From a virus (taxonomy: Duplodnaviria > Heunggongvirae > Uroviricota > Caudoviricetes): a DNA stretch of 12,549 nt. A model generated the notes under the pieces. It had not been told where the DNA came from, did no database searches, and worked only from the letters and a program-made list of their open reading frames with translations. The translations under genes and the position numbers were made by a program. Positions 1 to 12,549 of the stretch are shown here, piece by piece; position 1 is the stretch's first letter, and each line of letters begins with the position of its first letter. The DNA is taken from positions 1 to 12,549 of the IMG/VR virus record IMGVR_UViG_2541047926_000005; one strand, 5' to 3'.

Positions 1-1284
1 TTACTTCTTCGCCTCTGCAACCACTTTACTACCCACGCCGCGGTTATTGTATTCCCACATGCGGTTGTAGTTAGTGTCATTCAGATTGCGCTGTATTTCG
101 TCGTTATCATCTACGCTGCCGGTATTACCCGCAAACGGACGATTAGAGATCACCGCATCGGCCCACGGTTTAGCCGTGTTAAAACCTTCGTTGATGGCGC
201 TATCACGGATCACCACCTGACCGTTGGTATTGGCATCAACATCCAGCGAGCGGCCCAGTTGCGCCACACCATCACCGAAAGCATTGAAACGGCTGTTTAC
301 GGCGAGGAAACCGTAGTAAATGTTGGACAGCGTAGCCGGTGCAAACACATACGCTTCTTGCTGAGTACGTGAGTTCACCACGCGGAATTCGGTGTTATCG
401 AACACCACTGCGCCGCGACCAGAAACGATATCCACATCCCCTTCAATGTAGCTGTTGGTCACCAGCGTACGCGGCTGACGATTCGTTTCCAGACGGTTCT
501 GCACACCGCTGTTGGTGACAAAGAAGGTGTTCTGACGACCGAGAATGTTAACGTTGTTAATCTGTACCTGGTCACCATCAGTACGCAGTGCCACCGCCGG
601 ATGGTTACCTGCATCTACGCTATCGCCCAGCGTGTTTTCGATGGTCAGATTTTGCAGTTGCAGGCCATTGTTTTGTGACCAGAAGACCGCAGAGCAGAGA
701 ACACCGATACTGTCGCTGCGTTTGCTCTGGCAGCTATCGTACATATACCACGCTGGTTTACCTGGCATATATTTGCCGCGCGGGTTGACGTCGTGACGCC
801 AGTCGGCAGGGCTCATGCCACCATCAAGGGAAAGCCCAATCTTCACATCAATCGGTTTTTCACCTGTACCGTACAGAGTAATTCCACCCGGAGCGGCAGG
901 GACATATACCGTTCCCTGATACTCACCAGGCATCACGGCAATATACTGGCGCTTGTTGGTACGCTTGATAATTGCCGCATCTACCGCCGCCTGAATCGTG
1001 GTATGCGTTACACCTTGAGTGCCCGCCGGGCCGACAACAAAGTCAGGTTGCGCAGGCAGGGTAATCGGGGAAGGATTCCACGCTGCAGCACCTGGTGTCA
1101 GGGATGCAAAATAGTGTTGAGCATCGAAATTCTGCGCTTCTTTTGCCGACAGAATCGGGCGAGAAGAGGTACCAGGCGCGGTTTGATCAGAAGGACGTTG
1201 ATCGGGCGGGGTTGAGCTACAGGCGGTCAGCGTCACGCCAAAAGCCAATGCCAGCGCCAGACGGGAAACTGAAAATGTGTTCAC
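1..1284 (-). CDS. ybhC: YbhC-like outer-membrane lipoprotein (pectinesterase/CE8 beta-helix fold, putative acyl-CoA thioesterase)
   Basis: Complete 427-aa ORF; GTG start at 1284 with GGAG about 7 nt upstream; N-terminal signal peptide ending in lipobox LTAC; AVALRTDGD and DIVSG motifs typical of pectinesterase fold; lies directly outside the lambda att core, as ybhC does at attB(lambda) in E. coli. Confidence 0.8.
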   Translation of the reverse strand: MNTFSVSRLALALAFGVTLTACSSTPPDQRPSDQTAPGTSSRPILSAKEAQNFDAQHYFASLTPGAAAWNPSPITLPAQPDFVVGPAGTQGVTHTTIQAAVDAAIIKRTNKRQYIAVMPGEYQGTVYVPAAPGGITLYGTGEKPIDVKIGLSLDGGMSPADWRHDVNPRGKYMPGKPAWYMYDSCQSKRSDSIGVLCSAVFWSQNNGLQLQNLTIENTLGDSVDAGNHPAVALRTDGDQVQINNVNILGRQNTFFVTNSGVQNRLETNRQPRTLVTNSYIEGDVDIVSGRGAVVFDNTEFRVVNSRTQQEAYVFAPATLSNIYYGFLAVNSRFNAFGDGVAQLGRSLDVDANTNGQVVIRDSAINEGFNTAKPWADAVISNRPFAGNTGSVDDNDEIQRNLNDTNYNRMWEYNNRGVGSKVVAEAKK

Positions 1285-1321
1285 AGGTTGCTCCGGGCTA
1301 TGAAATAGAAAAATGAATCCG

Positions 1322-1421
1322 TTGAAGCCTGCTTTTTTATACTAAGTTGGCATTATAAAAAAGCATTGCTTATCAATTTGTTGCAACGAACAGGTCACTA
1401 TCAGTCAAAATAAAATCATTA
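1322..1421. other. attL (B-O-P') junction of a lambda-type integration: 15-bp core 1331-1345, IHF H'-like site 1371-1383, Int arm-type sites about 1392-1411
   Basis: Exact core GCTTTTTTATACTAA; left flank TGAAGCCT matches the bacterial B arm; right flank GTTGGCATTATAAAAAAGCATTGCTTATCAATTTGTTGCAACGAACAGGTCACTATCAGTCAAAAT matches the phage P' arm, with TATCAATTTGTTG (IHF consensus WATCAANNNNTTR) and tandem AGGTCACTAT / CAGTCAAAAT arm-type repeats. Confidence 0.85.
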
Positions 1422-2489
1422 TTTGATTTCAATTTTGTCCCACTCCCTGCCTCTGTCATCACGATACTGTGATGCCATGGTGTCCGACTTATGCCCGAGA
1501 AGATGTTGAGCAAACTTATCGCTTATCTGCTTCTCATAGAGTCTTGCAGACAAACTGCGCAACTCGTGAAAGGTAGGCGGATCCCCTTCGAAGGAAAGAC
1601 CTGATGCTTTTCGTGCGCGCATAAAATACCTTGATACTGTGCCGGATGAAAGCGGTTCGCGACGAGTAGATGCAATTATGGTTTCTCCGCCAAGAATCTC
1701 TTTGCATTTATCAAGTGTTTCCTTCATTGATATTCCGAGAGCATCAACATGCAATGCTGTTGGGATGGCAATTTTTACGCCTGTTTTGCTTTGCTCGACA
1801 TAAAGATATCCATCTACGATATCAGACCACTTCATTTCGCATAAATCACCAACTCGTTGCCCGGTAACAACAGCCAGTTCCATTGCAAGTCTGAGCCAAC
1901 ATGGTGATGATTCTGCTGCTTGATAAATTTTCAGGTATTCGTCAGCCGTAAGTCTTGATCTCCTTACCTCTGATTTTGCTGCGCGAGTGGCAGCGACAGG
2001 GTTTGTTGTTATATGGCCTTCAGCTATTGCCTCTCGGAATGCATCGCTCAGTGTTGATCTGATTAACTTGGCTGACGCCGCCTTGCCCTCGTCTATGTAT
2101 CCATTGAGCATTGCCGCAATTTCTTTTGTGGTGATGTCTTCAAGTGGAGCATCAGGCAGACCCCTCCTTATTGCTTTAATTTTGCTCATGTAATTTATGA
2201 GTGTCTTCTGCTTGATTCCTCTGCTGGCCAGGATTTTTTCGTAGCGATCAAGCCATGAATGTAACGTAACGGAATTATCACTGTTGATTCTCGCTGTCAG
2301 AGGCTTGTGTTTGTGTCCTGAAAATAACTCAATGTTGGCCTGTATAGCTTCAGTGATTGCGATTCGCCTGTCTCGGCCTAATCCAAACTCTTTACCCGTC
2401 CTTGGGTCCCTGTAGCAGTAATATCCATTGTTTCTTATATAAAGGTTAGGGGGTAAATCCCGGCGCTCATGACTTCGCCTTCTTCCCAT
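1419..2489 (-). CDS. int: Lambda-type integrase (tyrosine recombinase)
   Basis: 356-aa ORF beginning MGRRRSHERRDLPPNLYIRNNGYYCYRDPRTGKEF, recognised as lambda Int; catalytic region HELRSLSARLY ... HLLGHKSDTMASQYRDDRG present; 3' end abuts the P' arm; 23-nt overlap with xis as in lambda. Confidence 0.95.
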   Translation of the reverse strand: MGRRRSHERRDLPPNLYIRNNGYYCYRDPRTGKEFGLGRDRRIAITEAIQANIELFSGHKHKPLTARINSDNSVTLHSWLDRYEKILASRGIKQKTLINYMSKIKAIRRGLPDAPLEDITTKEIAAMLNGYIDEGKAASAKLIRSTLSDAFREAIAEGHITTNPVAATRAAKSEVRRSRLTADEYLKIYQAAESSPCWLRLAMELAVVTGQRVGDLCEMKWSDIVDGYLYVEQSKTGVKIAIPTALHVDALGISMKETLDKCKEILGGETIIASTRREPLSSGTVSRYFMRARKASGLSFEGDPPTFHELRSLSARLYEKQISDKFAQHLLGHKSDTMASQYRDDRGREWDKIEIK

Positions 2490-2685
2490 TTCTGATCCTC
2501 TTCAAAAGGCTACCTGTTACTGGTCGATTTAAGTCAACCTTTACCGCTGATTCGTGGAACAGATATTCTCTTCCATCCTTAACCGGAGGAGGGAATATCC
2601 TGCATTCGCGCACCCATCGACGAACTGTTTCAAGGCTTCTTGGGCGTCGCTGGCGAGCGTTCCACTCCTGAAGTGTCAAGTACAT
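2467..2685 (-). CDS. xis: Excisionase
   Basis: 72-aa ORF MYLTLQEWNARQRRPRSLETVRRWVRECRIFPPPVKDGREYLFHESAVKVDLNRPVTGSLLKRIRNGKKAKS, recognised as lambda Xis; overlaps the int start. Confidence 0.9.
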   Translation of the reverse strand: MYLTLQEWNARQRRPRSLETVRRWVRECRIFPPPVKDGREYLFHESAVKVDLNRPVTGSLLKRIRNGKKAKS

Positions 2686-2711
2686 CGCAAAGTCTCCGCA
2701 ATTACACGCAA
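2665..2711 (-). promoter_or_regulatory. pI-like CII-dependent promoter (TTGC-N6-TTGC at 2698-2711 on minus strand)
   Basis: Minus-strand TTGCGTGTAATTGC lies just upstream of the xis ATG, so the predicted transcript start falls inside xis; this matches lambda pI, which yields Int without Xis. No clear -10 hexamer, as expected for an activator-dependent promoter. Confidence 0.5.
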
Positions 2712-2712
2712 G

Positions 2713-2733
2713 AAAAAACCGCCATCAGGCGGC
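2713..2733 (-). terminator. Intrinsic terminator-like hairpin (stem CCGCC/GGCGG, loop 4 nt) followed by U6 on minus strand
   Basis: Plus strand AAAAAACCGCCATCAGGCGG; the minus-strand RNA would be GCCGCC-UGAU-GGCGG-UUUUUU. Confidence 0.4.
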
Positions 2734-2902
2734 TTGGTGTTCTTTCAGTTCTTCAATTCGAATATTGGTTACGTCTGCATGTGCTATCTGCGCCCACAGC
2801 ATCCAGTGGTTATAGCAGTCGCTGATGTTCTCGGCTTCGATAACTCTGTTGAATGGTTCTCCATTCCATTCACCTGTAACTCGGAAGTGCATTTATCATC
2901 GC

Positions 2903-2930
2903 CATAAAACAAAACTCGCCGTAGCGAGTT
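2903..2930 (-). terminator. Intrinsic terminator-like hairpin (7-bp stem AACTCGC/GCGAGTT, loop CGTA) with U-rich tail on minus strand
   Basis: Perfect 7-bp inverted repeat at 2913-2930; minus-strand downstream sequence is UUGUUUUAUGG. Confidence 0.45.
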
Positions 2931-2932
2931 CA

Positions 2933-2961
2933 GATAAAAGAAAACCCGCACTCGGCGGGTT
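2933..2961 (-). terminator. Intrinsic terminator-like hairpin (7-bp stem AACCCGC/GCGGGTT, loop 5 nt) with U-rich tail on minus strand
   Basis: Perfect 7-bp inverted repeat at 2943-2961; minus-strand downstream sequence is UUUUCUUUUAU; tandem with the preceding hairpin. Confidence 0.5.
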
Positions 2962-3240
2962 CGCATTCGTTCAAATTGCGTTTACTTCTTGGCGTTCTGT
3001 TCATCCATATCGATATACCATGGGTTGCTTCCCTTGGGCATGTTTAACGACTGCTCGCGATAGTATCTGATGCGCTCCATGAAATACTCGCGTGAGTGCT
3101 CAGGTTGCTCTCATGATACCTGCTCAGTGATAACAGGTATGTTAAGGCGCTCTCTGTACTCCATGCCTGATGCTGCAAGGTCAACGTTTACCTTGTTCTG
3201 TTTTTCTTTCGATTTCTCGGCGATGTTATGCCTGACATTG

Positions 3241-3525
3241 TCAACCCGCCTCCTTCTGAACATAACGGTTATAAATCAGTCCCTGAGGGCCATAAGGAAG
3301 CGGGATGTGCAACTCCTCTGGTTCAGAAACTATCCATTCCCCGGCCATCTCCGCTGGAGAGGTAATGATAAGTTGTTTGCTAATAAAAGGACCACTCCTC
3401 TCAACAACAAGCTTACCATCTTCATTAATAAAAGCTTGGATGTCAGGTGTGCTTCCACACTTGGTGATGCAGCGTTTGAACATTTTGTGTCCCCCCATTT
3501 TATGGACGGGGTAATTATAACACAT
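3241..3525 (-). CDS. Small hypothetical protein with N-terminal Cys/His cluster, in the ea8.5 position of lambda (Ea8.5-like, tentative)
   Basis: 94-aa ORF (lambda ea8.5 is 93 aa by recollection); N-terminus MCYNYPVHKMGGHKMFKRCITKCG has H-x4-H-x5-C-x3-C spacing; no SD at 3525. Alternative start at 3483 has a purine-rich GGGGGGA upstream. Follows an 84-bp AT-rich spacer. Confidence 0.5.
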   Translation of the reverse strand: MCYNYPVHKMGGHKMFKRCITKCGSTPDIQAFINEDGKLVVERSGPFISKQLIITSPAEMAGEWIVSEPEELHIPLPYGPQGLIYNRYVQKEAG

Positions 3526-3609
3526 TGAAATATAGTAATATTTGACGTAGATTTCTTTTGATCTATAAGCGATTTTTTAATGCTTTTAAGTTATAAATAC
3601 TTGTTTTCA

Positions 3610-4185
3610 TCACCCATCTTGCTGCGGTGCTACTATTGAAAAGTACTCACACCCTTTAGCCCAAATAGTTTTGATAGTTGTCCAACTGACTGGAACCTTG
3701 ATTTCGATTCTTCCGCTGCCGTCACAAGTTTCGCAATCATCATCACCAAAGCATTCCGGGCAGCTTATAAACGTAGTTTCTGAAAATTCACCGGATAGCA
3801 CACCCTTAGCGCCGTTCTCAGCGGTTAGTTTCTTCGGCACTATAACCCAACCATCCGGAGTTACCGGAGAATTGCCATTTATATCGAAGTTTGGCTCTGC
3901 GTCCTGAACCAGGAGGATGTAACCATTCTTGGCAGTATCAAGTTCTAACGCCTCGGTGACGGTACCGAAATAGCGATTACCTAAATCCGCATCACAAGTG
4001 CTTACATCAATGGAAACCTCCATGCCTTCGATTAATTCTGGCAAGTTGTAAGTTTGGCTTACAGGTTCTGCTCCCAGTGATGCCAGTGCAATTCGTGCCA
4101 GTTCCATTTGTTCGCCACGAGTAAGCCCGTTTTCAAGCGGATTTTTAATGAACAATTCAATACGTTCTTTGGTAATAGTGGTCAT
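3610..4185 (-). CDS. Hypothetical protein with C-terminal DnaJ-type zinc-finger motif (CxxCxG ... CxxCxGxG)
   Basis: 191-aa ORF; SD AAGGA 7 nt upstream of ATG 4185; only 10 nt downstream of the preceding gene's stop; C-terminal CPECFGDDDCETCDGSG. Confidence 0.7.
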   Translation of the reverse strand: MTTITKERIELFIKNPLENGLTRGEQMELARIALASLGAEPVSQTYNLPELIEGMEVSIDVSTCDADLGNRYFGTVTEALELDTAKNGYILLVQDAEPNFDINGNSPVTPDGWVIVPKKLTAENGAKGVLSGEFSETTFISCPECFGDDDCETCDGSGRIEIKVPVSWTTIKTIWAKGCEYFSIVAPQQDG

Positions 4186-4195
4186 TTGTTAGTCC

Positions 4196-5056
4196 TTAAA
4201 CTGCTAGTTGCAATTGCATTTCAAAGCGGTCGCGTTGTTCACAATACGCAAGAGAACCAGGGCTATTGTGTGCCTCAATCCGTTCTACCATTAATGCTGC
4301 GCGTGTCTCTTTACTTGCAGGTGCATAAGCCCCAGACCAGGCTTTATCAATACCGATGTTTCGAGCGACGTTCGTACTATCTGCGCTGGCTAAGGGTAAT
4401 TTTGTGAATATCAGCGGATTTAACATGCGCAATCCATGTAGTTTCGTAACCGGCTGACCATGCCCATCAACAATGTGACGAATCAGGTCTTTCATTCTGG
4501 CTACCGCAAGAGTTGGGCGCTTTACGTCATAGTCGCCACAACTACCGATAGCCACTCGCGGAAACTCATTGCACAAATGAATAAATCGCTCGTCACTTTC
4601 ATTCATGTGCCACACTGGAACGCCAGCTAGTTTTCCGTGAGCCCGGACTTCAGCCAGGAAAGCATCGGTGGCTGGGGTGTCAACACGGATGCTGTCGCGC
4701 AAGATGAAAAATGCATTGAGCATTCCAGTCTCTGGCACTTCATCCTGATGCTTCTCATACGCATCAAGAGCCTTCATCATCTCATGTCCGAATGGTTGAG
4801 GGTGCTCAGCCTTCAGCCCAGCATTCTCCGCCGCCAGCGCTGAAAACTTCTCGTGTGCCAACTTAACAGCCGAATCAGCCTGCTTAATTGACTCAATCGC
4901 TTTCTGGTGGTCTTCGTACAGAGCCGAAATCTTGGCCTCCGCTTCAGCAAATTTACGCACCAGATATTCAGCGTTTGTTTCGTTAACCTTTAAATCTCGT
5001 GGGAAGCATTTACCTTTCAGAAAACCATCCATCTCAATTAGTGACATTTGTTTCAT
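4196..5056 (-). CDS. Hypothetical protein: N-terminal coiled-coil-like region plus C-terminal globular domain
   Basis: 286-aa ORF; ATG 5056 overlaps the upstream stop (ATGA); GGAG upstream; helical heptad-like N-terminus ([30 protein letters not shown]); C-terminal motifs AIGSCGDYD and LHGLRMLNP, unrecognised. Confidence 0.7.
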
Positions 5057-5217
5057 TTCTTCCCACTCCGCAACATTGCATTCAGATATTTGTTGTCATT
5101 AACAGAACCGAAACTCTTTCTCTTAAGCAATTCCTCTCTCGATGGCATTGGCTTTACGCGTTGGCGAATAATCATTTCTGCCGGAAGAATGCTGGGATTG
5201 TATGCAAGTCCTCTCAT
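5053..5217 (-). CDS. Small hypothetical protein (about 54 aa), translationally coupled to both neighbours
   Basis: ATG at 5217 with SD GAGGAA 6 nt upstream (alternative ATG at 5235 overlaps the upstream TGA); its stop TGA overlaps the ATG of the 286-aa gene (ATGA). Confidence 0.4.
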
Positions 5218-5227
5218 GGTAAATTCC

Positions 5228-5524
5228 TCAGTCATTACTGATAGCGCCATAGCGTGAGCGGTAATTACGCAGGCGCGGGTCGATATATTCAGGGAAGTGG
5301 GTATATGTGGCTTTGCGGAATGGTCGGATTGATGTCTGGTAAATTCGCTCGCGTTCTTCTTTCTCTGCAAGCCATATACAGTGGCGAAATTCCTTTTCCT
5401 CTTTCGTTTCCTGCGGTAGCGACATTATCAGGTCGTAGTTTTTCCTGAATTTATCCAGCACCTCCGATACGGAATTGCCGGAACAGCGGCGCGCGTCATC
5501 CGCACCATACAGAGGCGCTGGCAT
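5228..5524 (-). CDS. Hypothetical 98-aa protein immediately downstream of the erf/ssb module
   Basis: SD AAGGA about 8 nt upstream of ATG 5524; begins 24 nt after the ssb stop. Confidence 0.65.
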
Positions 5525-5547
5525 AATGGAATCCTTATTTTGCTAAT

Positions 5548-5931
5548 TTAGAAGGGAATTGAATCGTCGTATTCAGGATGGTTTTGATGATTGCTACTTT
5601 GTTGCTGTTGGCTGTTTCCTGAAGTTGCAAATCCAATCTTTGCATTCAGTAATTCAAGAGTGATTGATTGACCATTTTGCCCCTGATAAACATCAACCCT
5701 GATGTTTTCTCCGGTAATTTCCACAATGCCACCTTCAACAAGAACACTACGGTAGTAATCCGCTTGCGCTCCCGGCTTGGCAAATACAACGGCGCTGTAG
5801 TTTGTCCATTCTTTCTTTTTTGTCTGGCGATCGTAATACTGAACGCCAGCACGGATGTTGAATCCGATATTTTCCCCGGCCTGAAACTCTCTTGCGGGCT
5901 TGTTTAGTCTTACAGTAATCGAATGTGCCAT
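5548..5931 (-). CDS. ssb: Phage single-stranded DNA-binding protein (SSB-like)
   Basis: 127-aa product from ATG 5931 (TAATG overlap with the erf stop); OB-fold-like core (SAVVFAKPGAQADYYRSVLVEGGIVEITG), Gln/Ser-rich linker, and acidic C-terminal tip DDSIPF matching the SSB tail consensus DDDIPF. The ORF-track N-terminal extension to 6021 overlaps erf and is rejected. Confidence 0.7.
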   Translation of the reverse strand: MAHSITVRLNKPAREFQAGENIGFNIRAGVQYYDRQTKKKEWTNYSAVVFAKPGAQADYYRSVLVEGGIVEITGENIRVDVYQGQNGQSITLELLNAKIGFATSGNSQQQQSSNHQNHPEYDDSIPF

Positions 5932-6536
5932 TAAGCAGCCGCTCCTTCTAATTCGTCTCGTCTGATGTTGTAAACGTCCTGCGCTTTGTGCTGCTCCGGT
6001 GTTCCTTCGAGCATCTTCCACGCTTTGGCGAACGCCTGTTTAAGCTCTTCCACGGTGTTTTTCTGCATTGCTGCGTCAGTGAATGCTTTTAGAACCTGTT
6101 CAGGTGTAGGTGATGGTTTTGATTGCTTTGCTACTGCGTTCTGCTGATGTTTATGCTCGTCTGTATCTGCATCTTTCGCATCATCAATGCCGAACAAACT
6201 ATTGAGGCAATACTTGCGTGCATAAGAGCTTGTAGCTCCCGTAACTTGTGCAGAATCCATTCCTTTCTTGCTTTCTTCCTCTCGTGCAAGAGCGGTTGCC
6301 GTATGACTGTTTTCGCCATCGGTAATAGTTGCCGTGGCTTTCACGTAATACCGATCACCAATCAACACAACTTCATCGCTGATTGATAAAAACAGGCCAT
6401 TCAGTAACGGCTTAACGCCTTCAAGAATATCTTCGCAGCTTCTGTATTTATATTTACCGAATGAGTTGTACTGATTTTTTGGCGCGTTCAGATTCTCCTG
6501 AATAGCTGCCAGTCTTGCGTAAAATTCTTTGCTCAT
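5931..6536 (-). CDS. erf: Erf-family single-strand annealing recombinase
   Basis: 201-aa product from ATG 6536 (MSKEFYARLAAIQENLNAPKNQYNSFGKYKYRSCEDILEG ... GATSSYARKYCLNSLFGIDD), recognised as close to P22 Erf; the start at 6536 leaves a 10-nt gap to the upstream small ORF, whereas the 6566 start would overlap it. Confidence 0.85.
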   Translation of the reverse strand: MSKEFYARLAAIQENLNAPKNQYNSFGKYKYRSCEDILEGVKPLLNGLFLSISDEVVLIGDRYYVKATATITDGENSHTATALAREEESKKGMDSAQVTGATSSYARKYCLNSLFGIDDAKDADTDEHKHQQNAVAKQSKPSPTPEQVLKAFTDAAMQKNTVEELKQAFAKAWKMLEGTPEQHKAQDVYNIRRDELEGAAA

Positions 6537-6546
6537 ATGTTTGTTC

Positions 6547-6716
6547 TCAGAATGGACATGGCCCAAGGAAATAACGCTGGTTTAATACTTCGACTCGGGA
6601 CAAATTAAGGCATACCCGCATTCCTTCGCGGTCACCATTATGGCGATACCAGAGAGCTTTCTGCGTGTACATGCGTCTCTGTAACTTGCTCTCCTTCACT
6701 GTGGTTGCAAGTGACA
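6547..6716 (-). CDS. Small hypothetical protein (56 aa) upstream of erf (arf-position ORF)
   Basis: Strong SD AAGGAG 6 nt upstream of ATG 6716; ends 10 nt before the erf start; overlaps an alternative 52-aa frame (6640-6796) that is ATGA-coupled to the kil stop. Confidence 0.4.
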
Positions 6717-6792
6717 TGAATATCTCCTTCGTTACCGATTAAATCTTTCATCTGACGAATGAATTCTTCGTCTGACCAGTTATCTGTAAAAC

Positions 6793-6945
6793 TCATTTCC
6801 TGCGATACCACGGAAGGTTGATAGCTGATTTCATCGCTTTATTTGCTTCAAGCCACATTTTGGAATCACCAATAAATCTGGCTATTACTGCTTTGTTTTG
6901 TGCTGCACGAAGCATCTGGTGATTGATGGTTATTTCATTGCGCAT
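6793..6945 (-). CDS. kil: Kil-like small protein (host-killing / cell-division inhibitor family, tentative)
   Basis: Unlisted 54-aa ORF MRNEITINHQMLRAAQNKAVIARFIGDSKMWLEANKAMKSAINLPWYRRK; SD GGAGG 5 nt upstream; start overlaps the 3' end of cIII as kil does in lambda; central FIGD-KM motif resembles lambda Kil as I recall it. Confidence 0.55.
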   Translation of the reverse strand: MRNEITINHQMLRAAQNKAVIARFIGDSKMWLEANKAMKSAINLPWYRRK

Positions 6946-7064
6946 AACGCCTCCAGTTGTTTCTTTGCTGCTCTGATTAATTGTTTAACTCGGCGTGATA
7001 ATTCAGATTCGAGCGGGTAGAAAGCGGACATGACGCCGCTACCCGCGAGCTGAAAGTGCATCAT
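6930..7064 (-). CDS. cIII: CIII-like protein (FtsH inhibitor that stabilises CII)
   Basis: 44-aa product MMHFQLAGSGVMSAFYPLESELSRRVKQLIRAAKKQLEALCAMK from ATG 7064 with SD AAGGAG 6 nt upstream; amphipathic core ESELSRRVKQLIRAAKKQLEAL parallels the lambda CIII core ESLLERITRKLRDGWKRLIDIL; the ORF-track 61-aa version has a spurious N-terminal extension. Confidence 0.75.
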   Translation of the reverse strand: MMHFQLAGSGVMSAFYPLESELSRRVKQLIRAAKKQLEALCAMK

Positions 7065-7139
7065 GGGTAACTCCTTATATTTGATTGCATAACGAAAATG
7101 CCTCTCGTGAAGCATTATTGGTATGCGGTAAAGCCGCGC

Positions 7140-7508
7140 TCAGGCGGCTTTGATAGTCATATCATCTGAATCAAATATTCCTGATGTGTCGATATCGGTA
7201 ATTCTTATTCCTTCGCTACCATCCATTGGAGGCCATCCTTCCTGACCATTTCCATCATCCCAGTCGAACTCACAAACAACACCATATGCATTTAAGTCTT
7301 TCGAAATTGCTATAAGCAGAGCATGTTGCGCCAGCATGATTAATACAGCATTTAATACAGCGCCGTGTTTATTGAGTCGGTATTTAGAGTCTGACCAGAA
7401 ATTATTAATCTGGTGAAGTTTTTCCTCTGTCATTACGTCATGGTCGATTTCAATTTCTATTGATGCTTTCCAGTCGTAATCAATGATGTATTTTTTGATG
7501 TTTGACAT
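7140..7508 (-). CDS. ea10: Ea10-like protein
   Basis: 122-aa ORF, same length as lambda Ea10; N-terminus MSNIKKYIIDYDWKASIEIEIDHDVMTEEKLHQINNFW recognised from lambda ea10; SD GAGGA upstream; sits upstream of cIII as in lambda. Confidence 0.7.
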   Translation of the reverse strand: MSNIKKYIIDYDWKASIEIEIDHDVMTEEKLHQINNFWSDSKYRLNKHGAVLNAVLIMLAQHALLIAISKDLNAYGVVCEFDWDDGNGQEGWPPMDGSEGIRITDIDTSGIFDSDDMTIKAA

Positions 7509-7526
7509 CTATTCATATCCTCATAG

Positions 7527-7554
7527 ATAAAAAATCGCCCTCACACTGGAGGGC
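7527..7554 (-). terminator. Intrinsic terminator (stem GCCCTC/GAGGGC, 6-nt loop) plus GAUUUUUU on minus strand, about 20 nt upstream of ea10
   Basis: Plus strand AAAAAATCGCCCTCACACTGGAGGGC; minus-strand RNA hairpin followed by U6. Confidence 0.55.
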
Positions 7555-7647
7555 AAAGAAGATTTCCAATAATCAGAACAAGTCGGCTCCTGTTTAGTTA
7601 CGAGCGACATTGCTCACATAGCAGACTCGTGAATCTGCTATAGGTGC

Positions 7648-7833
7648 TTATTCGCTTGGTGGTTCAGGTAATTTCACGTACTCAACACCCCACATATTTT
7701 CTACCCAGGAAAGCCACTCCCATGAATTCAGTCTTTGTGACCACATTCGCCATCTCCCATTCAATTGGGTAATCTCCGTCTCGTCTCCCGGCCTGACGAA
7801 TGTGCAATTAGACTTCGTTATTCTTACCTTCAT
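7648..7833 (-). CDS. Small hypothetical protein (61 aa, Trp-rich C-terminal half)
   Basis: ATG 7833 overlaps the upstream stop (TGATG); GGAGGAG upstream; product MKVRITKSNCTFVRPGDETEITQLNGRWRMWSQRLNSWEWLSWVENMWGVEYVKLPEPPSE. Confidence 0.5.
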   Translation of the reverse strand: MKVRITKSNCTFVRPGDETEITQLNGRWRMWSQRLNSWEWLSWVENMWGVEYVKLPEPPSE

Positions 7834-8129
7834 CACTCCTCCCCAAGAGCCTTGCTGATGGCTGCAAGACCTTTATTAACAGCTCCATACCATTCTGGAT
7901 ATGTTGTCGTTGTTCTATTTTTGGATTGCTTAAGTAATAACTGAAGTGCTTCGAGAAGGTCAGGTGCTGCCGCTATTAGATTGGCATCTTCAATACATTT
8001 AACTTCCTCACAGATTGCAATATACGAACGCCAGCCTGCGCCATTTTCAAGTGAGTCTGCCTGGATGATTTTAATCTCATCGCCATCCATCATTATTTCC
8101 CACTTACCTTCAGTACCTTTAAATTCCAT
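7833..8129 (-). CDS. Hypothetical 98-aa protein
   Basis: SD GAGG 6 nt upstream of ATG 8129; lies directly downstream of a terminator; contains IAAAPDLLEALQLL helix; family not recognised. Confidence 0.65.
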   Translation of the reverse strand: MEFKGTEGKWEIMMDGDEIKIIQADSLENGAGWRSYIAICEEVKCIEDANLIAAAPDLLEALQLLLKQSKNRTTTTYPEWYGAVNKGLAAISKALGEE

Positions 8130-8149
8130 GTTAGCCTCTGTTGTTTATG

Positions 8150-8177
8150 CCAAAAATAAAGGCCGACTATGCGGCCT
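8150..8177 (-). terminator. Intrinsic terminator (stem AGGCCG/CGGCCT, 6-nt loop) plus UUUAUUUUU on minus strand, overlapping the stop codon of the 207-aa gene
   Basis: Plus strand CAAAAATAAAGGCCGACTATGCGGCCT; hairpin and U-tract fall immediately 3' of the 8167-8790 gene. Confidence 0.55.
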
Positions 8178-8790
8178 CGGAAGGAAGTCCAATCATCTTA
8201 TTCAAATCTTCTACCCGTAAAGCAGGAAGTGCTGTACTTGCTTTATCTGCTTCTTTTGGTAGCAACTCTTTGCTTTCAGGCCAAACCTCAATAAGTCGCT
8301 TAACTGTTGTGACTGAGTTTAAAGCAGCCCATACATTTGATTCGATATCCTTTTTCTTGGCTTCAAGTTTTTGTTGTAATGAGCAGATTTCATCAAACCT
8401 TTTTGTTATTTCGTGCTCTGCGTCAAACATGCATTTATCTTTTATCGGAGTAGGGAGAAATATATCTTCGCCGTTGCCGTCTTTCCCATATGAATGCCAT
8501 CCAACCCTTCTGCCAGATACAGTCAGATAAATTGAAGTAGAACGAAAATCGTATGAGTAAAATGAACATCCCATCTTGCCAAGTTCTTCACTTATAGCTA
8601 CCAACTTGGATGATAACTGATCCACTTCCTCAGTTTTCTTTTTACCGCCAAACGCAATAACTCTGGCGTCAAGTGCAAGCTGGTTCTTTAACTTTGTTAC
8701 TTCTTCAAGCTCAGTGAAAACCCCAGACTTAATTAAAGCGTTACGAGCGATTTTCTCTTTCATTCTCGTAGTTAAGCGGATTGATGACAT
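8167..8790 (-). CDS. Hypothetical soluble 207-aa protein with its own terminator (accessory gene in the ral/sieB region)
   Basis: ATG at 8790 with SD GAGAGG 7 nt upstream (ORF-track start at 8805 is a TTG inside the SD); charged coiled-coil-like termini; no TM segments; family not recognised. Confidence 0.7.
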   Translation of the reverse strand: MSSIRLTTRMKEKIARNALIKSGVFTELEEVTKLKNQLALDARVIAFGGKKKTEEVDQLSSKLVAISEELGKMGCSFYSYDFRSTSIYLTVSGRRVGWHSYGKDGNGEDIFLPTPIKDKCMFDAEHEITKRFDEICSLQQKLEAKKKDIESNVWAALNSVTTVKRLIEVWPESKELLPKEADKASTALPALRVEDLNKMIGLPSEAA

Positions 8791-8847
8791 ATTAATTCCT
8801 CTCAAATAAGTGGTTTGCTGCGAAAGTAAATACGCTTAAGTTACCTG

Positions 8848-8985
8848 TTATTTATCCCACCAAGTTCCGTATCTATCTATCCAGTTACACCAATCGTCGA
8901 CACTCCATTTTGTTGTGTCGCATTTTGGCAATTGGCATGAATATCTACCTTCTTTGTAAAGTCGGCGTTTGACTTTCTTGGGCAT
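8848..8985 (-). CDS. Small Cys/Trp-rich protein (45 aa)
   Basis: Unlisted ORF MPKKVKRRLYKEGRYSCQLPKCDTTKWSVDDWCNWIDRYGTWWDK; strong SD GAGGTGA 6 nt upstream of ATG 8985. Confidence 0.45.
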   Translation of the reverse strand: MPKKVKRRLYKEGRYSCQLPKCDTTKWSVDDWCNWIDRYGTWWDK

Positions 8986-9171
8986 GGCTCACCTCAATCG
9001 TAATAAGCTGGAATTGATTTTCCGCGTTGCTTCTGGCGGCCTGAACAAGTCACACCCATTTCACTGCGTGGCTTGCGGTAGTAAAGATTGTGCCTGTCTT
9101 TTAACCACATCAGGCTCGGTGGTTCTCGTGTACCCCTACAGCGAGAAAAATAGTAAAATCCTCTCACCCCC

Positions 9172-9534
9172 TTATTTTGTCAGGGGGATATCTCCTTCAG
9201 TTCTGACCATTCGCCTTAATACTTTCCTTAAGTCGATGTAAAGTTGAAGGTCTCCATTTGCTGCGGCATCAGCCATTTTTTGCCTGACAAGCAGTAATGT
9301 TTCATACGGCTCAATAAGAATATCGTCATGAGTAATTAGGTGAAGCGTTGCCGCATCAACTATTCCTAGAGCTGCGCCAAGTATCAAAAATTCCCTGCTA
9401 TTTTTGTCGCATGAGGAGATAAGCGTATTTAGCGCATACCTAATATTCTTTATAGCTGTTGTTAATGCTGCAATTTCTTCTATGGCGTCTTCTTCAATGA
9501 GATTTTTAAGCTCATATTTTTCTTCCTGACCCAT
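9172..9534 (-). CDS. Hypothetical 120-aa protein, first leftward gene after the organisational break
   Basis: ATG 9534 with SD GAGGT about 5 nt upstream; the ORF-track extension to 9618 lacks an SD and has a different composition; no Arg-rich motif, so not an N-like antiterminator. Confidence 0.6.
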   Translation of the reverse strand: MGQEEKYELKNLIEEDAIEEIAALTTAIKNIRYALNTLISSCDKNSREFLILGAALGIVDAATLHLITHDDILIEPYETLLLVRQKMADAAANGDLQLYIDLRKVLRRMVRTEGDIPLTK

Positions 9535-9569
9535 AATTACCTCGCCGTCAGTTGTTTTGATTTCCGGTA

Positions 9570-9601
9570 GCCTGCCGCGTAAATGGCTACATTTGGCAGG
9601 C
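9570..9601. promoter_or_regulatory. Nested inverted repeat GCCTGCC-n18-GGCAGGC (inner AAATG/CATTT) in the divergent intergenic region; candidate operator or RNA structure
   Basis: Perfect 7-bp arms at 9570-9576 and 9595-9601; overlaps a weak sigma70-like promoter for the plus-strand gene (TTGATT 9557-9562, 17-nt spacer, TAAATG 9580-9585). Confidence 0.3.
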
Positions 9602-9647
9602 AAACACTTCCACTGCATTCATCAACTTTCTTGCAGCGAAGGCTAAT

Positions 9648-11123
9648 GTGCTGAAGTATGACCCTGATCAGTTACGACAGGATTTGTCTTCACAGGGCGG
9701 CGTAAACTTAGTTAATGGTGCCGTTAGTTATGATAATCTGGGTAGTGAATACGGGCTGAATCTCATAGGTGAATATGCCGAAATATCAAATTTACGGGAT
9801 GTAGCACCATCTGTAGGTGATAAGGTCATGGTGAAGGAGCACACCACAGGACGTGGTTTGTTAGGTGGTGGTGTTTTCGTAGCTGTATCAGGGAATTACA
9901 CAGATGATGATGGAGTATTTATTTCGTCTGCTTCCCCATCTGTATATTGGGTACGAAGTGGCGCAGGTAGTCATGTTATAATTGAATGGTTCGGTGGCAA
10001 ATCTGAAGATCAGAGTTTAGATCATTCTCCTATCCTGGCTAACGCACAGTTATATGAAGGTCGATCGATAGAGTTTCAGTACGGAAGCTACTACTTTACA
10101 CCTCCATGCGTCATCAAGCCGTCTATGCATTTCATCGGCAGCGGTGGCGCTAAAACATTCTGGCGAAACAAAAATATAAATGCGGACGCCACGGTGTTCT
10201 TCGCCAACACCGGGAGTGCATCTTCTTGGGCTGAAAATACAGTGTTCGAGCGCATTCATTTTAGTAATGACTCCAGCTCTACCCCCAGCAATGCGGCTAT
10301 ATCACTGCAACATGCGAGTCTATTTAAATTTGATAAGTGCGGTTTTTACAAGGCACCGATTTACGCATCAGATTTACACTGGGTTACTTGGAATGGCTGC
10401 GTATTAATCGACAGTATGACCACAATTAACGAGGCCAGTGTATCACCAGCATTTCCTATTAACGAGGGTCCAGCATTTATCGACTGCTATATGGTCAGAT
10501 CCCCTATAGATATAACTGATGTTGCCGATTTGAGACTAGTAGGCACTTCGATGTTTTACGGACCTTACGGCATAAAGTCAACGACACACCGACCTTTAGA
10601 TTCAGGGGCGGATTCTCGGGGATTACCGGTATTTATAACTAATAGCGTAATTGACAATATTGACGGTTATTGCTTGGACCTTAACAGAGTGGCGGTAGGA
10701 ACTATCACAAACAGCCTGTTCTCTGGAGGAAGAGTGTCAGGGACTCCAGCAATACGTGCAACAGAGGTTTTGGGACTTAGCTTTAACGCCAATGTTATCC
10801 ATTTCGCCGGTCAGGAATGCATGTACCTCTATGACGTGCAGAATATATTAATGGGTAATAACCAATTCAGTAGTTGCAACGGTTATGCAATAAAAGCAGA
10901 ATATTGTCGTAATGTTACTGTGAATGGTAATTTCTTCGGTAACCAGAAAGTCACTGGCGGATGGAATACATGCACTGGAGGGATAAACTTTAACACCAAC
11001 GATAACCTTGCATGGATAATAACTGGCAACACTTTCGTAAGTGTACCCGGAGTTGTAGGGCAGACAGGGTCTGGAAGAACAGTTTATACTGCCACAGGTA
11101 ATTCAGGTTTGTCAGATAATTAA
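9648..11123 (+). CDS. Tailspike-like right-handed beta-helix protein lacking a head-binding domain (putative polysaccharide-degrading or -binding)
   Basis: 491-aa ORF with GTG start at 9648 (SD GAAGG 5 nt upstream); N-terminus LKYDPDQ matches the conserved junction motif of P22-family tailspikes as I recall it, and the upstream in-frame codons read A-N-V; body has beta-helix-like repeats (NVTVNGNFF, NILMGNNQF, LSFNANVIH, ITNSLFSGG); no signal peptide. Confidence 0.75.
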   Translation: MLKYDPDQLRQDLSSQGGVNLVNGAVSYDNLGSEYGLNLIGEYAEISNLRDVAPSVGDKVMVKEHTTGRGLLGGGVFVAVSGNYTDDDGVFISSASPSVYWVRSGAGSHVIIEWFGGKSEDQSLDHSPILANAQLYEGRSIEFQYGSYYFTPPCVIKPSMHFIGSGGAKTFWRNKNINADATVFFANTGSASSWAENTVFERIHFSNDSSSTPSNAAISLQHASLFKFDKCGFYKAPIYASDLHWVTWNGCVLIDSMTTINEASVSPAFPINEGPAFIDCYMVRSPIDITDVADLRLVGTSMFYGPYGIKSTTHRPLDSGADSRGLPVFITNSVIDNIDGYCLDLNRVAVGTITNSLFSGGRVSGTPAIRATEVLGLSFNANVIHFAGQECMYLYDVQNILMGNNQFSSCNGYAIKAEYCRNVTVNGNFFGNQKVTGGWNTCTGGINFNTNDNLAWIITGNTFVSVPGVVGQTGSGRTVYTATGNSGLSDN

Positions 11124-11133
11124 CAATATATGC

Positions 11134-11190
11134 ACTCACATGACAATATATGTATAACAGTTGCCGTATATTTGTCATGTGAGTTGTTTT
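11134..11190. terminator. Bidirectional terminator-like hairpin between convergent genes (13-bp perfect stem 11134-11146 / 11172-11184, 25-nt loop)
   Basis: ACTCACATGACAA and its reverse complement TTGTCATGTGAGT; followed by TGTTTT on the plus strand and an AT-rich tail on the minus strand; flanked by 10-bp direct repeat ACAATATATG (11123-11132 and 11143-11152). Confidence 0.5.
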
Positions 11191-11196
11191 AATATA

Positions 11197-12549
11197 TTAA
11201 GCTCTCTTTATTAGAACTGGAGATATAATGATGATTGGTAGTGCTTTTACCAGATAAACCAGCGGGAGAACTAACTCAGCTCTACATGAAAAAATGAATC
11301 CTGGTAAAATGGCCATTGCAGATACAATAAGCATCTTATTTCCTGATGACAGCAACTTATTTATCAATAGAATAATTGACAATGAATACGCTATCATTAC
11401 CATTGGCCCAAATGCACCGCCAAGAATCATGGATTCAAGCGGAAGTGATGATGATAAAGCTATTCCAGATGAATGACTGCCAAGGGCAATATCCGTATAT
11501 ACTTGCGATATCGGCGTGACACCGTTTATATTAAATCCAAGCAGGTTAAAGAATTGTAATATAATATCTTCCTGATTAAAATTGTGGGAATACCAAAAGT
11601 CAGATATATTGAAAGTACTTTGCAACCCAGATATTATTGATGCTATAGAATCAAGAACAATTAGTAAATAGCTAAAGAAATACATGTTGTATCCTTCTCT
11701 ATAATATGAAACCAAAGAAAGTACAACAAATAGAGATGATATTACTACAGGGCTTGTTATTTTTCTGAAGTATTTCTTTGCATTATTTATATCAACAAAC
11801 ATCATTATTATAAAAATTGAAATCAAGGAAGAAAAAGCCTTCCCTCTAATGCCTATAATTATGTCTGAGAACAATATGAATATTGCAATTGCTGTAATTA
11901 TCTTACTCCTTGAAAAGGCTATAGCCATGAGCGATAAAATTACTGAAAACCCACTTAAGAACCTTATTGCGAAAGGCACTGACGACACAAGATCGTCGTT
12001 TGATAGATATATTGCAAGATGCCCAAGACCTGAATTTGATATGAATGAGTAATATGTGTATATTTTATATAGTTGAGCTATCGCTACAAACAAAAATATA
12101 AATACAAAAAAATTACTTAGCCTTAGATTAATTAAAGGATTTGTTTTTGTTTGTCTGAATGACTTTCCAAGAAAGTAAATAACCATAGATGAAAGAACGA
12201 TGCATAGCATCATTCCTTTAAATGCAGGAGTGGAGTCGTTTACCATAAACAAATAACAGGCAGGTATTCCAAGAAGTAATGAATAACAAAAGAAATATAT
12301 AGTTCCAATAGATAATTCATTCATTCTTTTTATATACGATAACACCAAGCATGAAGTATACAGTGGAGCGATAAAACAAAACAATATATCATATACACCT
12401 GATTGAACCCCAGATATCATTAGCAATGATATAAATACGATTATAGACAGTAGAGCAAACATAAGAAATATATACGGCAATGTATTAACTATCTGGTTTG
12501 GAGTCCATATATAACCAGTGTTACTGCCTGAAATGTATTTTCTAATCAT
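11197..12549 (-). CDS. Polytopic inner-membrane protein, GtrC/Wzy-like (candidate O-antigen modifying enzyme: serotype-specific glycosyltransferase or O-antigen polymerase)
   Basis: 450-aa ORF with many hydrophobic helices; markedly AT-rich codon usage unlike the rest of the window; starts at the last base of the window (ATG 12549-12547), so the true start may lie beyond; convergent with the tailspike-like gene. Confidence 0.75.
   Translation of the reverse strand: MIRKYISGSNTGYIWTPNQIVNTLPYIFLMFALLSIIVFISLLMISGVQSGVYDILFCFIAPLYTSCLVLSYIKRMNELSIGTIYFFCYSLLLGIPACYLFMVNDSTPAFKGMMLCIVLSSMVIYFLGKSFRQTKTNPLINLRLSNFFVFIFLFVAIAQLYKIYTYYSFISNSGLGHLAIYLSNDDLVSSVPFAIRFLSGFSVILSLMAIAFSRSKIITAIAIFILFSDIIIGIRGKAFSSLISIFIIMMFVDINNAKKYFRKITSPVVISSLFVVLSLVSYYREGYNMYFFSYLLIVLDSIASIISGLQSTFNISDFWYSHNFNQEDIILQFFNLLGFNINGVTPISQVYTDIALGSHSSGIALSSSLPLESMILGGAFGPMVMIAYSLSIILLINKLLSSGNKMLIVSAMAILPGFIFSCRAELVLPLVYLVKALPIIIISPVLIKRA

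Follow-up and report, generated by a model that had tools for sequence, protein, structure and literature searches.

A P22-like prophage at the lambda attachment site, very probably reduced to an 11.8-kb remnant by one deletion between N and the tailspike gene

The stretch of viral DNA analysed here (the window, 12,549 nt) raises the question of how the early-left genes of a lambdoid phage came to lie directly beside a tailspike-like gene. The initial annotation had described an abrupt organisational break in the 113 bp from 9535 to 9647 and had offered two causes for it, either a large internal deletion that left a defective prophage remnant or a moron insertion within the pL operon that would place N and pL beyond the window. 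The features identified in the window are collected in Table 1.

Table 1. Features of the window, with positions counted from its first nucleotide
Feature	Position	Strand	Remarks
Host gene ybhC	1–1284	−	Pectinesterase-like, 427 aa; Pfam PF01095; left flank of the lambda attachment site
attL core	1331–1345	+	15-bp lambda att core GCTTTTTTATACTAA, exact match, then P′-side GTTG
Lambda-type integrase gene (int)	1419–2489	−	356 aa, apparently intact; Pfam Arm-DNA-bind_1, Phage_int_M/SAM, Phage_integrase
Excisionase gene (xis)	2467–2685	−	72 aa; PF07825 Exc on the identical L004 gene; counterpart of the HK629 excisionase
Early-left (pL) operon genes, promoter lost	2686–9534	−	Pfam, PHROG; homology to HK97, HK106 and HK629 early-left
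abc2	5228–5524	−	Early-left operon
erf	5931–6566	−	Early-left operon
kil	6793–6945	−	Early-left operon
cIII	6930–7064	−	Early-left operon
DUF2528 gene	7140–7508	−	Early-left operon
Nmad5 gene	8167–8805	−	Nucleotide-modification-associated; early-left operon
120-aa gene of unknown function	9172–9534	−	phrog_7374
3′ stump of antiterminator gene N	9537–9644	−	Last 35 codons and stop; PF25694, phrog_271
7-bp inverted repeat GCCTGCC/GGCAGGC	9570–9601		18-nt spacer; incidental, within the N coding sequence
Deletion junction	9643–9644		2-bp microhomology CT common to the N side and the tailspike side
5′-truncated tailspike gene	9648–11123	+	491-aa ORF; phrog_7173, PF13229
13-bp-stem hairpin	11134–11184		Separates the tailspike gene from the convergent polymerase-like gene; z-scores of the fold −2.8 (+) and −3.6 (−)
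O-antigen-polymerase-like (Wzy-like) lysogenic-conversion gene	11197–12549	−	450 aa, full length; the name O-antigen polymerase comes from RefSeq and NCBI labels

The window begins in host DNA. The ybhC gene is annotated beside the same int gene in Escherichia coli 317, and window positions 2–2947 are 97.8% identical in nucleotides to that locus. Homology to attP and int of phage HK629 begins exactly at 1331, and the homology to HK629 attP spans both arms. The int-xis pair is 99.2% identical to that of HK629 in nucleotides, and int, xis, erf, abc2, kil and cIII are homologues of phage genes, with 97–99% nucleotide identity to HK97, HK106 and HK629.

An exact-protein look-up led to a 162-kb contig (L004, GCA_004767235.1) that matches the window over its full length with 99.95% identity. 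Rightward of the polymerase-like gene, this contig carries ~590 bp, a perfect lambda att core (attR) and then ybhB-bioABFCD-uvrB. Perfect 15-bp lambda cores flank the element between ybhC and ybhB, the attL core with the P′-type flank GTTG and the attR core, which lies beyond the window in L004, with the B′-type flank CTTGAGCG. The distance between the two cores gives a length of 11,810 bp for the element, of which the window holds almost all. To the right of the polymerase-like gene, L004 has neither N, cI, cro, O, P or Q nor any gene for lysis or structure, and its complete gene list between attL and attR lacks immunity, replication, lysis and morphogenesis. The sequence to the right of the window, to which the initial annotation had referred the choice between its alternatives, was attR followed by ybhB and the bio operon, with no complete prophage downstream. 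The element is located at the classical lambda site and has the order attL-int-xis-early left-N stump/truncated tailspike-polymerase-like gene-attR; the int, xis, attL and recombination module that had been attributed to a defective remnant are all present.

The organisational break was confirmed and narrowed to a single point, 9643/9644, but the 113 bp assigned to it are not a spacer, as this stretch is the 3′ third of N. The leftward 120-aa ORF has its ATG at 9532–9534 and the rightward 491-aa beta-helix ORF has its GTG start at 9648; as had been noticed, genes for immunity, replication, lysis and heads are absent from the interval. On the minus strand, positions 9537–9644 encode SLRCKKVDECSGSVCLPNVAIYAAGYRKSKQLTAR followed by a stop codon, and this peptide matched the Pfam N_peptide family PF25694 only over positions 70–100 of 100 (E 7e-12), and also phrog_271. 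In both HK629 and the prophage of E. coli CFSAN064035, a 273-bp gene precedes the homologue of the 120-aa gene. Its 90-aa product matched PF25694 (E 4e-17 and 1e-15) and phrog_271, "anti-termination protein N-like", and this full-length N has an N-terminus rich in arginine in both.

The N-terminal two thirds of N, including the arginine-rich N-terminus, are lost from the window, and nutL and pL are also deleted. In HK629, the N start codon, boxA, the pL region and the arginine-rich motif are all located upstream of the point where homology to the window ends. A search for boxA across the window found none, and no nutL/boxA remnant was present at the junction. Therefore a full-length N of the lambda type, with its N-terminal arginine-rich RNA-binding motif and with nutL and pL upstream, is not what the window contains; the 113-bp "intergenic" stretch reads as an N pseudogene rather than a spacer. 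RefSeq (CFSAN064035; L002, 6371–7008) applies the label "antitermination N domain protein" to the 120-aa phrog_7374 product and lists the 90-aa PF25694 N as hypothetical. The former label was rejected for the gene at 9172–9534, as neither Pfam nor PHROGs supported it, the real N being the 90-aa gene upstream.

On the other side of the break, the initial annotation had correctly placed a tailspike-like ORF from 9648 onwards, but the truncation of this gene at its 5′ end had been missed. The GTG start corresponds to native Val106, so residues 106–596 are kept, which comprise the linker and the beta-helix receptor-binding domain; tailspike codons 1–103 are lost, the join is at codon 104 and nearly the entire head-binding domain is removed. 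The ORF is 99% identical in amino acids to residues 106–596 of P0018, a 596-aa tailspike, and aligned with positions 106–626 of phrog_7173 (E 1.5e-185). The right-handed beta-helix receptor-binding domain was recognised with PF13229, phrog_7173 and PDB. The PF09008 Head_binding domain was found at residues 1–113 of an intact 596-aa homologue, and Pfam detected no such domain of P22-type tailspikes in the window ORF. This 5′ truncation is the strongest internal sign of a deletion.

Among the phage records, the best matches to the tailspike had 72% nucleotide identity and came from Salmonella phages FSL SP-031, SP-038 and SP-049. The closest solved relative of the receptor domain was CBA120 TSP3 (PDB 6nw9 and 5w6f, E 9e-26), and TSP3 targets E. 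coli O77. This relation and an O106 label within the protein cluster of the polymerase-like gene hint at the O77 group of O-antigens. Decay of the tailspike in a metagenome copy (L011), suggested by a 431-aa call, was rejected because the DNA is identical and only the choice of start differs.

A three-way alignment with base-by-base extension showed that identity of the N side to intact phages extends to 9644 and that identity to intact tailspikes begins at 9643. The overlap at the junction is 2 bp (CT), with no more homology on either side, which is the signature of illegitimate, microhomology-mediated joining. Deletion mediated by an insertion sequence was rejected, as no IS sequence or repeat was found at the window junction. 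In another contig (L016), the tailspike is 100% identical to that of the window and includes the head-binding part, and a putative IS1 is inserted in the head-binding region, ~165 bp upstream of the position of the window break; the end of this contig (3427–3474, reverse strand) is what we take to be the IS1 terminal inverted repeat.

The initial annotation had also pointed to a perfect 7-bp inverted repeat with a nested AAATG/CATTT repeat. Both arms are present (GCCTGCC at 9570–9576 and GGCAGGC at 9595–9601), located 42 bp from the break within the N codons for CLPNVAIYAAG, but their proposed role as a regulatory site or recombination scar was unsupported. The window contains 27 inverted repeats of this type, against 16 ± 5 when sequences were simulated with a first-order Markov model, and one turned up in 7% of the 113-mers simulated, which places the repeat at chance level; its fold is unremarkable, with z-scores of −0.9 (minus strand) and −2.1 (plus strand). 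Furthermore, the arms are unchanged in HK629 and in the CFSAN064035 prophage, where the nested repeat is broken by an A-to-G change. As the arms are present in intact phages, the repeat predates the deletion and is not its scar. The inverted repeat is therefore neither a scar nor demonstrably a regulatory site. An Rfam scan of the window at gathering thresholds revealed no known RNA family.

The occurrence of the junction was followed in other assemblies, and an identical 32-mer spanning it was found in 7 independent ones (NCBI, ENA and Logan; isolates and metagenomes). Compared with the window, these carriers have no more than 6 SNPs, none of which falls in 9537–12549, and the junction is flanked by kilobases on each side, within contigs of 162 kb and 68 kb that bear host flanks. 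None of the 5,426 complete RefSeq E. coli genomes spans the junction. The junction is thus real and of single origin in a young, near-clonal lineage. Since the copies are nearly identical, they are silent on selection, and the intactness of an ORF among them is uninformative. At position 8578, within the Nmad5 gene, the window and SRR786272 (L006/L013), the one assembly that matches it fully here, have G and the other five carrier assemblies have T.

A relative with the missing block was found in E. coli 317, where a complete P22-like prophage occupies this site and has ~26 kb from N to the start of the tailspike gene. Its order is ybhC-int-xis-early left-N-repressor-cro-cII-replication-nin-Q-lysis, continued after lysis by terminase-portal-coat-ejection proteins-arc-tailspike-attR-ybhB. 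Unlike the window, this prophage has no conversion gene and its tailspike is different. The intact att-lambda prophages (317; CP116919.1/L023; L024) share the site and the ybhC-attL-int-xis left end with the window and carry the ~26 kb that are missing here, and in att-lambda prophages the tailspike, conversion module, intS stump, attR and ybhB follow in the same order as in the present element. The tailspike of L022–L024 is 99.66% identical in nucleotides over window 9643–11094 and lies beside attR at att-lambda, behind P22-like tail and ejection genes, with gtrA-gtrB-gtrC where the window has the polymerase-like gene.

The boundary of this module swap is located at window 11094–11123 (L022–L024, ~11762–11934), with the polymerase-like gene in the window and GF66.2 and gtrC-gtrB-gtrA in L022–L024; the last ~10 tailspike codons vary with the adjoining module. 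In L004, the intS stump lies past the window, at ~13178–13302, where the polymerase-like gene gives way to the lambda-type P arm; it consists of ~108 bp from the 3′ end of an integrase gene of the intS (argW) type. This is a mosaic joint, at which a lambda att-int-xis module replaced an argW-type one. The att-lambda P22-like prophages of strains 317 and EC931 have an 84-bp pseudogene at the equivalent place beside attR.

L022 (1–2700, GCA_958315335.1) is an independent and different deletion remnant at att-lambda. Its int breaks off at the position matching window 1822, with 102 aa left, and is followed by 143 bp equal to window 8801–8943; the rest runs from gp10 through tailspike, gtrCBA and attR, the early and head genes being gone. 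This remnant shows that prophage decay recurs at the att-lambda site.

The right arm has close relatives elsewhere. Window 9643–12549 is 99.2% identical to the P22-like prophage of E. coli GF66.2, and the match begins 310 bp into its 596-aa tailspike gene. In GF66.2 and PSS-11, the prophage occupies argW with IntS; its tailspike receptor domain, polymerase-like gene and 380 bp upstream are 99.2% identical to the window, whereas its 596-aa tailspike is full length. Its attP is located between int and xis, so that int adjoins the polymerase-like gene. The Kapi1 preprint places attP between int and xis in Sf6, HK620 and KplE1.

Two short contigs, from ERZ28598084 and ERR11861305, combine an untruncated tailspike with the polymerase-like gene; they match the window at 100% identity over 9643–12549 and diverge exactly at 9643. 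The intact att-lambda relatives and these diverging contigs together point to a P22-like att-lambda ancestor and to a missing block of ~26 kb. Among complete E. coli genomes, the tailspike-polymerase pair was found only in argW P22-like prophages and never at att-lambda, and no intact parent with both arms at att-lambda was found; a single-parent history is thus the most parsimonious one.

Taken together, the break is very probably the scar of one ~26-kb deletion by which a P22-like prophage at the lambda att site became an 11.8-kb remnant. This is the first alternative of the initial annotation, and it is borne out by the truncation of both N and the tailspike gene, the flanking att sites and the intact relatives. 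The ancestor would have been a P22-like temperate phage of ~38–40 kb with lambda-type att-int-xis, a lambdoid early-left operon and, at the right end, the tailspike followed by the O-antigen-polymerase-like conversion gene. A single illegitimate recombination at CT (9643–9644) would have joined N codon ~55 to tailspike codon 104. In its early part, the deleted ~26 kb would have contained the 5′ part of N, nutL, pL/oL, the repressor gene, cro, cII, replication, nin, Q and lysis, and in its late part all head, DNA-ejection and immI (arc/mnt) genes plus nearly all of the head-binding domain of the tailspike. A series of nested deletions would have ended in the same junction as a single event.

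The two arms could also derive from two phages, with a left arm (attL to N) and a right arm (tailspike to attR) joined in one non-homologous event by illegitimate recombination between elements, for example between a resident att-lambda lambdoid prophage and a P22-like phage that superinfected the cell or integrated in tandem. The siphoviral lambdoids HK97, HK106 and HK629 are equally close to the early-left arm, the exact tailspike-polymerase pair occurs elsewhere in argW-type P22-like prophages and the intS-type integrase 3′ stump beside the polymerase-like gene shows that the right arm is mosaic. However, early-left modules are common to lambdoid and P22-like phages, so that the left arm cannot tell the two histories apart, and att-lambda P22-like prophages with a lambda-type int, the same intS stump and a 99.7% identical tailspike do exist. 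The att sites have the right orientation and match in type, and a simple internal deletion needs no extra steps. Recombination between two elements is therefore improbable, and its end product and consequences would be identical.

The position of the break within the tailspike gene suggests another reading, in which the break was kept because it yields a free O-antigen-cleaving tailspike enzyme that acts with the polymerase-like gene. The head-binding domain ends no more than 8 residues from the break, which comes immediately before the conserved NVLKYDPDQ linker, and the first 36 bp retained are this linker, common to other P22-like tailspikes. The sequence AAGG (9639–9642), a 5-nt spacer and the GTG at 9648 form a Shine-Dalgarno-like, plausible translation start created by the break, and the ORF is intact in 7 of the 7 assemblies. 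Against this, a scan of the plus strand from 8800 to 9648 found no promoter-like site upstream of the truncated tailspike, a tailspike fragment has no known export route and the integrity of the ORF says nothing about selection among near-clonal copies with 0 SNPs. In addition, the position of the break was spotted post hoc, and the L022 remnant at the same site was deleted quite differently. Such domestication is very unlikely. Given the absent promoter, the truncated ORF is most likely an unexpressed leftover; on read-through transcripts, translation of a free tailspike fragment from the AAGG-N5-GTG start is conceivable, although actual expression of such a fragment is scarcely to be expected, and the position of the break is then a coincidence noticed after the fact.

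The second alternative of the initial annotation, in which the tailspike-like and membrane-protein genes are a moron within the pL operon and N, pL and the rest of the prophage lie rightward, drew only on the window stopping short of the right end of the element. It was refuted by the 3′ third of N that abuts the break and is extremely improbable: what follows to the right of the polymerase-like gene is ~590 bp, attR, ybhB and the bio operon, the break cuts N short, the tailspike lacks its 5′ end, and in intact relatives the tailspike and conversion module adjoin attR in this same orientation. Finally, prophage repeats often mis-join short-read assemblies and several carrier contigs end ~350 bp past the polymerase-like gene, but a chimeric contig of two unrelated prophage fragments is practically dismissed by the recurrence of the same junction in 7 independent assemblies from three sources, with kilobases on each side and in 162-kb and 68-kb contigs.

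The deletion from N to the tailspike gene has consequences for what the remnant can still do. Considering the genes lost, it is likely to be uninducible, with replication, lysis and particle formation impossible. As their promoters are missing, the early-left genes (kil, cIII, erf, abc2, xis, int and others) should be largely silent, which explains that kil is tolerated without a repressor. The element's own routes for expression of int and xis (pL plus N, and the cII-dependent pI) are gone, and we infer that excision would need help in trans. As int, xis, attL and attR look intact, the element may be excisable when Int and Xis are provided in trans. The combined proposal that it is an 11.8-kb O-antigen island, excised and re-integrated by a helper (Int/Xis or cII), and that it also provides a free O-antigen-cleaving enzyme from AAGG-N5-GTG, is unlikely. 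If it were true, excision and re-integration of the island would switch the polymerase-like gene off and on, as reported for the wzy locus of Salmonella Typhimurium.

The part of the remnant likeliest to be still expressed, selected and useful to the host is most likely the polymerase-like gene, as it has its own upstream region: ~270 bp of native upstream sequence are retained, 99% identical to the GF66.2 prophage. The gene itself has the same length as the GF66.2 copy and 99.2% nucleotide identity to it, a GC content of ~30% and a highly hydrophobic 450-aa product. This protein scored 17.3 bits against Pfam PF14296, below the cut-off of 26.6, in an alignment that is near end-to-end (residues 35–443 versus profile positions 4–461 of 468). 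It had no NCBIfam, PHROG or PDB match, and tblastn against 50,697 phage records gave no match. Its gene takes the slot held by gtrABC behind a 99.7% identical tailspike in att-lambda prophages. Its sequence weakly suggests assignment to the Wzy family, and the gene may encode an undescribed phage conversion polymerase. The corresponding cluster at 90% identity contains proteins from E. coli (one member labelled O106) and from Salmonella enterica subsp. houtenae and salamae. The gene lies outside the O-antigen cluster and could affect serotype prediction and the sensitivity of carrier strains to O-antigen phages. The hairpin between this gene and the tailspike gene has a perfect 13-bp stem (ACTCACATGACAA/TTGTCATGTGAGT) and probably terminates transcription arriving from at least one side; it was missed by a simple terminator scan because of its long loop.

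The element is an ordinary cryptic prophage, and its route of decay is already well known. It provides a clean, base-resolved example of the passage from temperate phage to cryptic prophage via one microhomology-mediated deletion, in which loss of the regulatory and lytic core left the integration end on one side and a surface-conversion gene on the other. Annotations should accordingly treat the tailspike-like ORF as a truncated gene and should not tally the element among inducible prophages.

Cryptic remnants of this kind are known from E. coli K-12, where CPS-53/KpLE1 is a seroconverting one with the organisation argW-intS-gtrABC-like yfdGHI, and from Shigella flexneri, which has gtr-carrying cryptic prophages. 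Like the element in the window, these remnants are P22-like or lambdoid prophages that have lost lytic and morphogenesis genes and have kept an integrase and an O-antigen-modification module by the att site. In contrast to them, the present element is located at att-lambda with a lambda-type int, has a polymerase-like gene instead of gtrABC or oac, keeps the whole early-left operon and shows a single, clean, base-mapped junction.

Engineered ΔN fragments of the P22, Sf6 and HK620 tailspikes fold and stay active. The tailspike ORF of the window resembles these constructs in starting at the NVLKYDPDQ linker between the head-binding and receptor-binding domains, but the constructs were engineered and expressed, whereas the ORF is a deletion product without a recognisable promoter.

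A further comparison is offered by Salmonella Typhimurium DT8/DT30, in which a wzy locus of 2.6 kb, with 113-bp direct repeats as attL and attR and its own integrase absent, is excisable; excision was shown experimentally, and loss of the locus alters sensitivity to O-antigen-binding phages (PMC12074656). In contrast to that locus, the present element spans 11.8 kb, has 15-bp lambda cores and carries int and xis. In both cases, an O-antigen polymerase or polymerase-like gene is located outside the O-antigen cluster and is flanked by attL and attR (PMC12074656).
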